Source of the DNA: a virus
Taxonomy: Duplodnaviria > Caudoviricetes
Virus record (IMG/VR): IMGVR_UViG_3300020044_007772
Span: 1-26,070 of that record
DNA: 26,070 bases
Reading direction: 5' to 3' (one strand)
The position numbers were made by a program, and so were the translations under genes. Positions 2-11,960 of the stretch are shown piece by piece; within the stretch, counting starts at the first letter, position 1; every line of letters begins with the position of its first letter. The notes beneath the pieces were generated by a model. That model did no database searches. It was not told where the DNA came from and saw nothing but the letters and a program-made list of their open reading frames with translations.

Positions 2-2200
2 TCATAGTCTAGCCCTTCTCTTTGTTTTTGCAGACGCCCACATATCGTTAAGCGTTGCCGTGTTGGTCCTGCCCACAATCAATGGGCGCTCACTCGCCAT
101 GACCTTAGGGGCCACTTCGCCCCGCCATGCAATAGCCAGCATTCTAAACGCATCCGCGGGATGCGAACAGTTATGAACTATTGCACCGTTAGACAGCGAA
201 AATTCCTCTGCGTCCGGTACGGTTAGGCACCAAACATCAGATTTTTTATTTAGATTTTTGACGCTCTCGATAACGAGCAGTTGCCTGTTTGTCAGCGCCT
301 CTGTCACGGTACGCTTTAACTTTGCAAGCTGACGAACAATATTTTTGAGCGTGTCCAGATTTACGAACCAATGCTTCAAATTGGTTTTTGCATTCAAGGC
401 ATTCTTTTGGCTCGCGCTTCCACTTTGTCCAACTTTTAGACCGCTCTGCATGGCGCTTATGCCATAATCTTCCGGCGTCTGACTTGTGCCACTCAGCGGC
501 TGAAGTTCTTGCTTCAGCAGTGAATGTTCTTTTCGGCTGTCCAGCAAGAGTTTCGCGAAGATGTATTGCGGCTGGCAAACACTCAAGGTTTCCCAGTCGG
601 TTGTTGTTTTTGTCGCCGTCCCTGTGGTGGATGTGGCAGCCATCTGGAATAATCCCAAATGCTGATTTCCAAACATCCCGGTGCAGGTATTTGCCGCCGC
701 GCTTAAAGTATTTATCGCTTTCCCAAATGCGGTAGAGGCCGCCGTCAAAATATTGCGTGATGGGGTCAAGGAAGACTGGATCACTGTACCCGGCGTCAGG
801 GACGCGGCGGATGTCCACCCTGATTCCGTTTTGAATGTGTGATCCGGCGTACATTTCACCGAAAGACCGTCTTTGAACGCCACTTCCACAAGAAGGGCAT
901 TTTTCCGCGTCACACGCGGGTTGATGTATTGCTTCCAGCCACATGATGTCAGAACTTCCCCGCTATAAGGCAGGTCCATTATCCGATGCGTTCCGTAACG
1001 TGTCAATACCTTTGTGTCGCCCGTAAAGCACCAGTTGTGCTTCGGTGCCGCCCGGAATGCCTTCTTGTCTTCGTCATATTCGCGCTCATACTGGCGCAAT
1101 GCCTCAATGCCTTCGCGGCACTTCAGTTCGTCAAACCATACTTTAGGCAGCGTCATACGCACAGCCTGGATGCCATCTTGTACGCCAAGGTCAGGCACAA
1201 CATTGATGTTGGCTAGACCAAGAAATTCCGCCAACTGTTCAATAACAGACTTACCTTGAGCAGCCAAAGTCTTAGCCCTGGCATCATGCGGCAAATAATG
1301 CTTGCCATAATGGTACGGCTTGTTTGTAACAACGTTTGCAATGTCTTCAATACTTGCGCCGGAAACCGCATAATAGTCGATAACGTGTATCTCATTGCGA
1401 GCCACCTGATACCACCAAATTGCCGTGTCATCCCTAAAGCCCAAGTCCCATGCCGTGTACGTCGGCAGGGCAGGATCATACGGAACTTCGCTAATGCGTC
1501 CTTGGTCCTGCGCCTCGCGCATCTCGACGCCATAGAACGCGCCAAGGATCGCAGCCTCAAAGCTGCATTCGTATTCCTGCATATACTGGTCAGGAGAAAC
1601 CTGAGCCTTGACAGCCTCAAGCTCCGTAAGGGGCAAAATCCCGCTGTCAGTTGCCGTCAGCCTGAGAAGAAACCAGTCCTTCGGACTTAGCTTGGCAGTC
1701 TGGTAAATGTCCCAAAACTGGTTCTTACCCTTCGGAGTGCCGCCAAAAACCGCCCAGCCCTGCTTGTCAGATAACGTAGGGCGAATGACATGACCCCATA
1801 CAGAAGGTCGAAAATCGCCATACTCATCCATAAAAATGCCGTCGAAACCCAAACCACGCATAGCATCGGCATTATCAGCGCCAAACAGACGAATGCGTGC
1901 CCCGGTGAGTAAATCGATCTGCAATTCCGCTTCATTCGCAGCCTTCGTTATCGGTTTGCAAAAACGCTTCAAATAATCCCAGGCCACGCTCTTGGCCTGA
2001 CTGCGGTACGGAGCAATATACCCAAATAACGGATTGGGCGTCTTACACGTCACTGCCGCCCGGATAATGTCATTAACAGCCGCTACCGTCTTGCCCGCAC
2101 GGCGATGGGCAACAAGACATGCCCAACGCTGCGTCCGGTTGTGAAACGGCATGAACGCATCACGAGGCAAATATTCAAGTTTTACTTCTTTTCTTGCCAC
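2..2200 (-). CDS. terL: Terminase large subunit precursor (732 aa, contains an intein; ~445 aa after splicing)
   Basis: Walker A-like HRRAGKT, Walker B IFMDEY, GTPKGKN motif, nuclease motif AWDLG. The C-terminal nuclease motif HNW-CSHPADAFR is rebuilt when residues 391-677 are removed. Directly downstream of TerS. Confidence 0.96.
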   Translation of the reverse strand: MARKEVKLEYLPRDAFMPFHNRTQRWACLVAHRRAGKTVAAVNDIIRAAVTCKTPNPLFGYIAPYRSQAKSVAWDYLKRFCKPITKAANEAELQIDLLTGARIRLFGADNADAMRGLGFDGIFMDEYGDFRPSVWGHVIRPTLSDKQGWAVFGGTPKGKNQFWDIYQTAKLSPKDWFLLRLTATDSGILPLTELEAVKAQVSPDQYMQEYECSFEAAILGAFYGVEMREAQDQGRISEVPYDPALPTYTAWDLGFRDDTAIWWYQVARNEIHVIDYYAVSGASIEDIANVVTNKPYHYGKHYLPHDARAKTLAAQGKSVIEQLAEFLGLANINVVPDLGVQDGIQAVRMTLPKVWFDELKCREGIEALRQYEREYDEDKKAFRAAPKHNWCFTGDTKVLTRYGTHRIMDLPYSGEVLTSCGWKQYINPRVTRKNALLVEVAFKDGLSVKCTPDHTFKTESGWTSAASLTPGTVIQSSLTPSRNILTAASTAFGKAINTLSAAANTCTGMFGNQHLGLFQMAATSTTGTATKTTTDWETLSVCQPQYIFAKLLLDSRKEHSLLKQELQPLSGTSQTPEDYGISAMQSGLKVGQSGSASQKNALNAKTNLKHWFVNLDTLKNIVRQLAKLKRTVTEALTNRQLLVIESVKNLNKKSDVWCLTVPDAEEFSLSNGAIVHNCSHPADAFRMLAIAWRGEVAPKVMASERPLIVGRTNTATLNDMWASAKTKRRARL
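170..1030 (-). mobile_element. Intein in TerL (287 aa, class 1 type, Cys1...His-Asn/Cys+1)
   Basis: Block A CFTGDTKVLT, block B VKCTPDHTF (TxxH), block F DVWCLTVPDAEEFSL, block G NGAIVHN followed by extein Cys. Inserted just before the conserved SHxxDA nuclease motif. The in-frame middle shows no LAGLIDADG or HNH motif. Confidence 0.95.
246..854 (-). CDS. HNH homing endonuclease with C-terminal zinc finger, nested out of frame within the intein (start uncertain: ATG 944, ATG 854 or GTG 818)
   Basis: LHRDVW...IPDGCHIHHRDGDKNNNRLGNLECL is an HNH_3-type motif; CLEC...KYCSSAC is a zinc finger. It has its own TAA at 246-248 and lies in the -1/+2 frame relative to terL. Confidence 0.88.
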   Translation of the reverse strand: MYAGSHIQNGIRVDIRRVPDAGYSDPVFLDPITQYFDGGLYRIWESDKYFKRGGKYLHRDVWKSAFGIIPDGCHIHHRDGDKNNNRLGNLECLPAAIHLRETLAGQPKRTFTAEARTSAAEWHKSDAGRLWHKRHAERSKSWTKWKREPKECLECKNQFEALVRKSGHAQKYCSSACKVKAYRDRGADKQATARYRERQKSK

Positions 2201-10497: not shown

Positions 10498-10947
10498 ATG
10501 CCTGTATTTGACTTTGACGTTTCTACCTACGAAGCCCCCAAGCGCACCAGCTTTGAACCGCTGCCGCCCGGTGACTACAATGCCATGATTACTGACAGCC
10601 AGATGAAGGCCACCAAGGCCGGAACCGGCGAGTACCTGGAACTTACCATGCAGATCATCGACGGCGCTCACTCTGGTCGCCGCATCTGGGAACGCCTGAA
10701 TGTGGTGAACGCCAGCAAGGTGGCCGAGGAGATTGCCCGTTCGCAGTTGAACGGCATCAAGGCGGCTTGCAATATTGAGAAGCTGGAAAGCAGCGAGCAG
10801 TTGCATGACATCCCGTTCGTGATCTCGCTGGACATTGACCGCCGTGAGCCGACCCGTAACAAGGTCATGGGCTATACGTCAGTCGCCAAGGCCCCCCGCC
10901 AGACCGTTGCCGTGACTTCCGGAAAGAAGCCCTGGGAGCGTAAGTGA
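10498..10947 (+). CDS. DUF669-like single-stranded DNA-binding protein
   Basis: FEPLPPGDY...G.YLEL...GRRIWERLN motif and a PW-containing tail; typical partner of Sak4. Confidence 0.82.
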   Translation: MPVFDFDVSTYEAPKRTSFEPLPPGDYNAMITDSQMKATKAGTGEYLELTMQIIDGAHSGRRIWERLNVVNASKVAEEIARSQLNGIKAACNIEKLESSEQLHDIPFVISLDIDRREPTRNKVMGYTSVAKAPRQTVAVTSGKKPWERK

Positions 10948-11960
10948 TGCCCCCCTTGCCCGAATCCATGCACACCACGGCTCGCAAGATTTACGAGTGG
11001 TACGAGAGTAAAAAAGAAGACCACCGCGAGCATCTTGGCGCGTCATTGATCGGGCATCACTGTGACCGTTATCTCTGGCTTACATTCCGTTGGGCTGCGT
11101 CCCCCCAGTTTGGGGGGCGCGTCCTTCGGTTGTTCAATACCGGCAAGCGCGAGGAGGCGCGTGTCTATGAAGAACTACGATCCATCGGCGTGGAACTACA
11201 CACCGACGAAGACGGCAAGCAAATTAGCTGCCGCGATGATACCGGCCACTTTGGCGGTAGCCTTGACGGTGTTGGCCTTGGCTTTCCTGAAGGGCCGAAG
11301 ACTTGGGCTGTACTAGAGATCAAGACCGCCAACGATAAGGCATTCACCGCCCTGAAGGCCAAGGGCGTCCAAGCCGAGAAGCCACAGCACTACGCCCAGA
11401 TGCAGACCTACATGGGCATGATGAAGCTGGACCGCGCCATGTATATCTGCGTGAACAAGAACACGGATGACATGCATACCGAATGGGTGCATTTCAACAA
11501 AGAGACATACAGGGATTTGCTGGCACGGGCAGAGCGTACAATCAGTCGTACCACGCCCGCCGACAAGATCAGCCAGGACCCGACGCACTGGCTGTGCAAG
11601 ATGTGCGATATGTACAAGCTGTGCCACCAGCAGGAGCCAGCCGAGGCCAACTGTCGGACCTGCTGCCATTCCACGCCCAAGGAAGACGGCAAGTGGCATT
11701 GCCATGAGTATGACAAGGAACTGTCAGCCGATGCCCAGCGCAAGGGCTGTGATAGCCACCTATTCATCCCGGCCCTGGTGCATGGGACGCCTGTCGATGG
11801 CGGCGTGAACTTTGTCGAGTACTTGCTGGAAGGCGAGACATTCAAGAACGGCCCCGCCCATGTGAGCAGCCGTGAAGTGGTTAAACGCGGGCGCAAGAAA
11901 TCAGAGACCAAGCAAGATGTGACAGGGCTTGACGGCTTTAACGACGACATTCCGTTTTGA
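10947..11960 (+). CDS. Cas4-like PD-(D/E)xK exonuclease
   Basis: HLGASLIGHHC, GSLDG...LEIKT, QMQTYM, and C-terminal CKMC...C and CRTC cysteine clusters. Confidence 0.85.
   Translation: MPPLPESMHTTARKIYEWYESKKEDHREHLGASLIGHHCDRYLWLTFRWAASPQFGGRVLRLFNTGKREEARVYEELRSIGVELHTDEDGKQISCRDDTGHFGGSLDGVGLGFPEGPKTWAVLEIKTANDKAFTALKAKGVQAEKPQHYAQMQTYMGMMKLDRAMYICVNKNTDDMHTEWVHFNKETYRDLLARAERTISRTTPADKISQDPTHWLCKMCDMYKLCHQQEPAEANCRTCCHSTPKEDGKWHCHEYDKELSADAQRKGCDSHLFIPALVHGTPVDGGVNFVEYLLEGETFKNGPAHVSSREVVKRGRKKSETKQDVTGLDGFNDDIPF

Follow-up and report, generated by a model that had tools for sequence, protein, structure and literature searches.

The 26,070-base virus record IMGVR_UViG_3300020044_007772, which is ~73% complete, bears tailed-phage genes and is called the window hereafter over its whole length, carries a large terminase gene (terL) with an intein inside, and the intein in turn holds a gene for an HNH endonuclease in another reading frame of the same strand. 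Comparison with related loci makes it probable that these parts form one system: a terL intein with a nested -1-frame HNH gene that has its own promoter, drives homing and represses itself through copies of its terL target. The original prediction, made from the letters of the window, had read an intein at 1030..170 with an HNH gene out of frame; its coordinates are exact, and Pfam recognizes both families.

The terL gene occupies 2200..2 on the minus strand and encodes a 732-residue precursor matched by Terminase_6N, Terminase_6C and phrog_2. The intein (1030..170, minus strand; 287 residues) corresponds to terL residues 391-677 and is inserted between HNW and CSH, with HNW preceding CFTGDT at its start and IVHN preceding CSH at its end, five residues ahead of the conserved Asp of the terL D-A-F-R motif. 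Class 1 inteins have Cys or Ser at position 1, T-x-x-H in block B, Asp in block F, a terminal His-Asn pair and Cys, Ser or Thr at position +1. Among 25 aligned inteins, C1, T61, H64, H286 and N287 are invariant and D265 nearly so, and the +1 residue of the window intein is Cys. Pfam Intein_splicing scores 42.5 bits (cutoff 35.8), the splicing ends are modeled with pLDDT >90, and the top Foldseek matches are solved inteins of the HINT fold (E 8e-6). These motifs and this fold, together with empty alleles of the same site, identify the feature as a class 1 intein of terL, presumably self-splicing. Its in-frame middle (162 residues) is 33% Thr, Ala and Ser, falls below pLDDT 50 over residues 91-101 and 112-206, and is thus modeled as unstructured; a Pfam scan of the window intein found no nuclease family in its own frame. 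With the host frame also open among relatives, this fits the proposal that the intein frame is kept open as a linker. A canonical intein with an in-frame nuclease is excluded, as no such nuclease occurs in the window or among 160 related loci, and so is a fractured gene with a split intein, since terL is a single open frame (2200..2) with a contiguous intein. The class that fits is the non-canonical intein, with an intact nuclease frame, other than the host frame, inside an unbroken intein and with signs of horizontal spread.

The nested gene runs from ATG 944 to TAA 248-246 (944..246, minus strand, -1 frame) and encodes 232 residues. Free of stops, this -1/+2 frame extends over 238 codons from 962 up to the TAA; the third frame has 25 stops. 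Pfam HNH_3 matches residues 85-129 of the product with 54.3 bits (cutoff 24.8). The catalytic core (692..558) comprises H106/H107, N119 and H128, and a C-terminal zinc finger (401..324) comprises C182, C185, C203 and C207. All these residues, and the N-terminal CxxC pair C16 and C19 (899-888), are invariant in 116/116 HNH proteins, a set made of the best matches with four long ones removed. The N-terminal motif reads CPxCG (899-885) and resembles the Rad50 zinc-hook dimerisation motif, so that it may act as a zinc hook. The clade carrying CPxCG also carries the two-copy inverted operator described below.

The nuclease model has a mean pLDDT of 86. Structural similarity search revealed I-HmuI (PDB 1u3e) as the closest structure, with a Z-score of 7.0 and an RMSD of 2.6 Å over 77 residues, and other phage HNH homing endonucleases lie near it as well. 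The match spans residues 53-137, the fold searches having scarcely covered the N-terminal extension. Its Foldseek E-value of 0.018 falls short of strict significance and counts against the assignment, and a sequence search of solved structures with the HNH alignment gave nothing below E 0.018. On the model and the HNH_3 match, the window nuclease is an I-HmuI-like HNH enzyme with a predicted beta-beta-alpha core bearing His, Asn and His.

An ordinary in-frame HNH shifted out of frame by decay or by two assembly indels would look superficially alike, and in-frame HNH inteins do exist (bioRxiv 10.1101/2025.01.02.630785). Contigs from three other studies span the intein without gaps (X1 134-1073, X2 35-1589 and X5 as two overlapping pieces); they are contigs rather than raw reads. 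Two of those runs also contain contigs that lack a net 861 bases at this position; at 85% likeness, these may stem from related phages. Alignment of the window with 21 relatives (22 non-redundant sequences) has 27 gaps, every one a multiple of three, which together with the gap-free contigs excludes assembly indels in practice. An initial round of searching yielded 32 loci that contain the HNH and both ends of the intein, and both frames were kept in 32/32. A profile search extended this to 160 loci (136 passing an automatic test and 24 inspected by eye, with overlap between the two source collections), of which 151 are complete with both frames open and seven are open to the contig end; none has the HNH in frame. 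The other two of the 160 are L278, in which the start of the intein is disrupted, and L314, which has lost the catalytic core; L143, a locus that came from searching genomes, is disrupted as well. A search for fused or in-frame forms as longer proteins gave two records, each a single contig in which the frame changes and no in-frame intein is present, which is weak evidence of absence. The HNH also has its own stop inside the intein. The relatives already refute the indel or decay account, to which we give next to no weight.

The openness of both frames is not due to chance, because an HNH gene recoded synonymously leaves the host frame open in just 327/3800 trials. Selection in the intein middle follows the HNH frame. 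Over codons 89-250, amino acid identity is 0.61 in the HNH frame versus 0.31 in the host frame, with variation concentrated at the third position of HNH codons (0.60, versus 0.28 and 0.34 at the other two). The middle region has pN/pS of 0.30/0.78 in the HNH frame versus 0.42/0.36 in the host frame. The original prediction that homologues keep both frames, with codon conservation in the middle favoring the HNH, is borne out by these loci. In-frame deletions occur in L314:631-1113, which lost the catalytic core, and L005:3001-3531, which lost 25 HNH residues, both with the two frames kept; they possibly mark early decay toward a mini-intein.

The start of the gene and the signals ahead of it were assessed on 95 loci with <90% identity (97 after dereplication, two dropped for a 3-base gap) against synonymous recoding that keeps the intein protein. 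An ATG stands at the position of 944 in 79/95 loci (12.7 expected), a start within eight codons without a later stop in 93/95 (9.5 expected), and the CxxC in the HNH frame in 94/95 (6.7 expected). The frame is stop-free downstream of the start in 95/95 loci (15.2 expected) and upstream of it in just 10/95 (36.5 expected). Of the 16 loci lacking ATG 944, 15 have another start two to five codons later, ahead of the CxxC. A purine-rich Shine-Dalgarno region, GGGGAAG in the window and GGAGAGG in most relatives, lies at 961..955; a match of at least 4 bases serves 944 in 78/95 loci, 854 in 5/95 and 818 in 30/95.

The predicted first 60 residues of the nuclease cover intein codons 29-88 (944..767), a doubly coded stretch that includes the CxxC (899-888) and splicing block B (C-T-P-D-H, 853-839). 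Codons within it are frozen: Leu47 is CTT in 90/90, Pro62 is CCG in 89/89 and Thr61 is ACG in 94/95, whereas synonymous sites of the single-coded C-terminal block are scrambled. Third positions changed 0-16 times on the HNH tree in the overlap and 4-20 times in the promoter, compared to 28-47 times at free neighbours. Among control inteins collected by splicing domain alone, the closest 22 have ACG-CCG in 22/22 and the promoter in 18/22, and 59 more distant ones have the promoter at this place in 0/59 and ACG-CCG in two of 40 with Thr-Pro; the set includes five nested loci miscalled mini-inteins, and its counts rest on promoter and block B alone. Because the recoding test, the frozen codons, the CxxC, the Shine-Dalgarno matches and the control inteins agree, the HNH gene is assigned a start at 944, the one favored among the three candidates 944, 854 and 818, and its first 60 residues are read as overprinted on the splicing codons. 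The earlier view that the HNH lies inside the intein holds, and its confinement to the linker does not. The weak match of the window's own Shine-Dalgarno region (3 bases) weighs against this start, and ATG or GTG kept at 854 in 95/95 loci leaves room for a second one. RNA structure was rejected as the cause of the frozen codons, with a consensus of just -3.5 kcal/mol over the first 180 bases.

Ahead of the start, a predicted sigma70 promoter, TTGACA-17-GATAAT, is written in intein codons 9-18 (1006..978, minus strand), with 11/12 matches and the best score of 21 such sites in the window. Sites with at most three mismatches occur at this place in 85/95 loci (23.7 expected); with at most one mismatch, the -35 hexamer is found in 83 (20.2 expected) and the -10 hexamer in 66 (18.2 expected). 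The first 264 bases of the intein are multiply coded. It is highly probable from this conservation that the HNH has its own promoter inside the intein, and very likely that it is a nested, separately expressed homing nuclease. The suggestion that its expression would be uncoupled from terL gains a candidate mechanism in this promoter, and separate translation agrees with the own stop, the conserved start and the two frames kept in 151/160 loci. The original prediction had noted neither the promoter nor the target-like operator, and it had also missed the hairpin at the ribosome site and the overlap with block B.

Production of the HNH from terL mRNA, by a -1 frameshift or an internal start at 854 or 818 and without a promoter of its own, is a very unlikely alternative. 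It would fit the start kept at 854 and the NTG kept at 818 in 93/95 loci, as well as database protein P0122, which switches from terL into the HNH frame. However, P0122 is a single record that lacks the C-terminal end of the intein, there is no strict slippery heptamer in the window, and any such heptamer occurs in just 16/95 loci, so that a programmed frameshift with a conserved slippery site was rejected. The later starts were rejected as main starts for their weak ribosome sites and the conserved CxxC upstream, and loci that lost ATG 944 gained a start ahead of that motif.

Between promoter and start, bases 976-969 can pair with 961-953 to give a predicted RNA hairpin (976..953, minus strand) over the ribosome-binding site, with the predicted transcription start (~972-970) inside its 5' arm. 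Across an alignment of 61 sequences, pairing holds in 87.9% of cells, and double changes are seen in 16 cells compared to 2.0 after shuffling. The outer 3' C arises ~12 times on the tree and faces G in 16/17 loci, and the mean accessibility of the ribosome site in the family rises from 0.25 in the long to 0.43-0.50 in the short transcript. Several observations speak against a switch. RNAalifold gives no consensus structure on the same alignment, and the covariation rests mostly on one pair; in the window itself, the hairpin is no better than shuffles and accessibility runs the opposite way (0.45 long versus ~0.30 short). Arguments for and against a hairpin switch on the ribosome site are evenly balanced.

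The promoter spacer holds the putative operator. The terL codons D-A-F-R-M of the C-extein (154..140, minus strand), present in empty and invaded alleles alike, are the predicted binding site of the nuclease. A copy that reads D-A-F-R lies in the spacer on the plus strand (985..999, GATGCGTTCCGTAAC), and a second, inverted target-like copy (1004..990, minus strand) overlaps the -35 hexamer and forms a dyad with the first, which is a predicted operator half-site. The plus-strand copy is the top target-like site of the window intein, and its first 8 bases equal 154-147, an 8-mer with three occurrences in the window. This copy scores 7.0 in the family, compared to -3.5 ± 0.5 for the synonymous null and 12.5 for true targets. 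One of the two copies ranks first of ~1,650 sites in 63/95 inteins, and in 54 with a matrix built from 34 empty alleles. The 17-base spacer is also frozen, which a promoter alone would not need, and the frozen third positions of the copy coincide with the invariant bases of the target. As the spacer dyad has no covariation beyond independence, it is taken as a DNA site.

A more demanding test comes from distant relatives whose terminases differ. The motif ahead of the HNH start and the matching codons of the same terL read DEWRY and DEWCY in L029, DAISY and DAISY in L039, DALQY and DALQY in L034, and DALRY and DALRY in L061; in the split form L038, DATRY in non-coding DNA matches DTSRY. For 19 distant loci, with L153 left out for an Asp that precedes the intein, the own-target score is 147.9 versus 130.6 ± 3.7 (0/20,000 permutations). 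With one locus per related pair (17 loci), own terL scores 134.9 versus 117.4 ± 3.6 with a GC-binned permutation P of 6e-5, and P is 0.016 after removing the four best.

A nested gene and promoter may be real and yet the spacer serve otherwise, as the site of another dimeric regulator of phage or host, or as an insertion relic of a free-standing HNH, with no autorepression. Its dyad is like the sites of dimeric regulators, and the motif upstream of the free-standing HNH genes of PAE1 and Shemara fits the family matrix but not clearly their own terL. A relic would drift, however, and third positions matching the invariant target bases change only 5-20 times on the tree compared to 28-47 times at free sites; nor would a foreign regulator track the terL codons of each individual locus, as in L029 and L039. 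We consider this alternative unlikely. Several observations weigh against autorepression: just 8/19 distant loci beat all ten control windows, and 11/19 do not, which also speaks for the other-regulator account. The 95 loci are related, so that a single ancestral event partly accounts for the operator of the clade. Some bases of the plus-strand copy also belong to the -35 hexamer, the copy in distant inteins may partly reflect the intein fold and the -10 hexamer, and the target site was deduced from sequence rather than mapping. The operator of T4 I-TevI, which resembles its homing site, offers a precedent from which we infer autorepression; that the nuclease represses its own promoter through the target-like operator is moderately favored.

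Mobility of the intein is suggested by its patchy distribution. Of the 80 loci closest to the N-extein, L137 stops short of the site and was left out; among the other 79, 77 are empty and two invaded. Empty alleles have HNW-CSH or HDW-TSH at the junction. A tree built from 35 empty and 15 invaded exteins requires 8 changes of this label, at least seven of them forced, and a single clade of invaded alleles is rejected (p-AU 7e-5) in a 25-row test from which four long branches and some other rows were left out. Across 77 loci, exteins have a median identity of 34%, compared to 54% for the HNH and 64% for the splicing parts that are coded once; four of the 11 strong HNH splits conflict with a strong extein split and four are shared. 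L008 is placed among HDW-TSH empty alleles yet has Cys at +1, as co-conversion would give. It is likely from these patterns that the HNH drives homing into empty terL alleles. Insertion points lie 1, 2, 3, 4 and 5 residues ahead of the conserved Asp in 30, 21, 1, 13 and 30 of 95 loci, respectively, and the predicted target would explain several neighboring positions (1, 2, 4 and 5). An intein 1 to 5 codons ahead of the Asp would protect its allele because the cut would fall upstream of D-A-F-R. In a close terL allele (90%; L066:3171-3260), this site is empty and a different intein sits four residues downstream, between CSHP and CLVAG. Most HNH homologues lie on contigs of ~800-1,100 bases, near intein length, as one would anticipate where the assembly graph breaks between invaded and empty alleles.

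The constant tie of the HNH to terL could also suggest a terminase packaging cofactor rather than a homing nuclease, a reading raised for brucellaphages (PMC4422536). Against it, 77/79 close terL alleles lack the HNH, the distribution is patchy, mini-inteins without HNH occur at the same site, and the fold is closest to the homing nuclease I-HmuI; the cofactor role is extremely unlikely.

The HNH family extends beyond these loci. Of seventeen distinct weaker matches (28-56% identity over the best segment), 14 lie inside other terL inteins, nested in the -1 frame; one (L036) stands alone behind an empty terL, another (L038) is found between split-intein halves, and one is a fragment. Of 22 matched phage records, eight regions were examined. 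Tetrasphaera phage TJE1, Rhodobacteraceae phage LS06-2018-MD07, phiCDHM19 and Highwayman carry a nested HNH under a plain terL annotation, so that standard annotation of these four cultured phages misses the gene, as foreseen; PAE1, Poludnitsa, Shemara and BP10 have free-standing HNH kin beside terminase genes. Mini-inteins without HNH occupy the same site in MW202478, L340 and L344. In 20 distant nested loci, the presumed HNH start falls at intein base 249-288, past block B, and for this reason the N-terminal extension is probably particular to the window's clade. The promoter score reaches at least 9 in just 6/20 of these loci (2.3 expected; 0/81 control windows), which weighs against the main reading; the promoter of phiCDHM19 matches 12/12.

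Several relatives merit description in their own right. In phiCDHM19 (L152:2030-2075), a perfect TTGACA-17-TATAAT, AAGGAG and GTG lie in intein codons ahead of the unannotated nested HNH. A Staphylococcus borealis prophage (L038:1341-3694, the same as L144) has a split terL intein with the same HNH family between its halves, and its non-coding gap contains an extended -10, AAGGAG and a target-like motif. Phage Poludnitsa (L149:2468-3040) has an unannotated free-standing HNH between terL and portal that overlaps the terL end, and L061:1-4173 has a terL with at least three inteins, two large in-frame ones and one with a nested HNH. Inteins of ~315-356 residues in L359, L389 (1201 onwards) and L392 contain long antisense (300 codons) or +1 (276 codons) frames, possibly further non-canonical nucleases. 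Elsewhere in the window, a Cas4-domain exonuclease gene (10944-11960, phrog_1990) adjoins Sak4-like and SSB genes in an ordinary phage recombination module without an intein.

In the proposed mechanism, terL mRNA would yield the 732-residue precursor, from which the intein, unstructured linker included, would splice itself out. Transcription by the host sigma70 polymerase would begin at ~972-970 and translation at ATG 944, making the 232-residue nuclease independently of terL. On the long terL mRNA, the ribosome site would be masked by the hairpin, but not on the short transcript, which would lack the 5' arm; this step has partial support. The nuclease would recognize the conserved D-A-F-R codons and cleave upstream of them, and repair would copy the intein. 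In the promoter spacer, it would occupy the inverted copies without cleaving them and thereby prevent transcription, in the manner of T4 I-TevI. A canonical in-frame nuclease is present just when its host protein is produced; a nested gene under a host-type promoter of its own could act before a late packaging gene and would then need a brake, which the operator would supply. The nested layout looks stable rather than a step toward an in-frame intein. Beyond the window, we lean slightly toward a widespread terminase-intein family with a complete self-repressing circuit in splicing codons: a promoter, a target-copy operator that would reveal the target, a hairpin that gates the ribosome site and, overprinted on block B, a new nuclease domain of 60 residues, with the HNH occurring free-standing, between split-intein halves or nested and never in frame. 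The layout also offers a natural case of catalytic splicing residues coded twice. From the target copy, a recognition site can be predicted for this uncharacterised nuclease family, and if true, the operator lets each nuclease's target be read from DNA.

The nested out-of-frame layout as such, thought possibly undescribed in the original prediction, is already in print (2015, 2025 and 2026). The terL of brucellaphages Tb and Pr has an intein-encoded, out-of-frame HNH gene of 687 nt (PMC4422536), alike in host gene and similar in size; there it is a passing mention, partly read as a packaging cofactor, with no promoter in the text consulted. No brucellaphage was among the phage records matched by our HNH search. 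Actinobacteriophage inteins carry a frame-3 endonuclease VII-like gene as well as frame-3 and antisense nucleases (bioRxiv 10.1101/2025.01.02.630785). They share strand, frame offset, an unstructured host-frame linker, missed annotation and a proposed origin from free-standing nucleases with the window, but the nuclease family differs and second frames there typically lie outside the splicing domain, whereas that of the window covers block B. Compared to the endonuclease VII-like frame-3 subtype of Gosselin, the window matches HNH_3 in Pfam and its fold lists are led by I-HmuI, the families being compared by description. The main text of that work, as available, does not contain 'promoter', 'Shine-Dalgarno' or 'start codon'. 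A cyanobacterial dnaX intein has a +2 LAGLIDADG frame under frame-dependent selection (bioRxiv 10.64898/2026.09.14.751524), with an overlapping nuclease frame, patchy distribution and coexisting alleles as in the window; it differs in nuclease family and in being in a cellular gene, and its main text mentions a Shine-Dalgarno motif but not 'promoter'. ShiLan has a hidden frame-3 HNH without a splicing domain, for which no ribosome site was found and translation was asked about (PMC11855218). Expression of out-of-frame nucleases is left open in the sections available (PMC11855218, section 4.3; bioRxiv 10.1101/2025.01.02.630785, section 15), and the terL intein family would supply an answer testable at the level of bases: a promoter at 1006-978, a start at 944 and a predicted operator. 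In the literature searched, which left most subscription journals and bioRxiv supplements outside its scope, there was no report of a promoter or operator inside an intein, nor of an operator copying the target, an overprint on block B or the hairpin.

Fractured genes have a free-standing nuclease between split-intein halves, and 5' hairpins are described for such nucleases (PMC2677866); the same HNH family lies between split-intein halves in L038 and L144, whereas the window intein is contiguous. I-HmuI (PDB 1u3e) is likewise comparable in its HNH_3 core and best structural match; compared to it, the window nuclease adds the C-terminal four-cysteine finger and the N-terminal CxxC extension, and its host element is an intein. 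A system that works in a similar way is T4 I-TevI, which represses its own promoter via an operator resembling its homing site, with a promoter inside the element and a ribosome-site hairpin on long transcripts (PMC2988022). In the window, an own promoter is indicated by conservation, and the predicted operator resembles the inferred target and overlaps that promoter. I-TevI, a GIY-YIG enzyme, is encoded in a group I intron, and its T4 late promoter lies in non-coding DNA (PMC2988022), whereas the window has predicted sigma70-type signals written in splicing codons; the two would share the same logic, without the window nuclease being a member of the I-TevI type.

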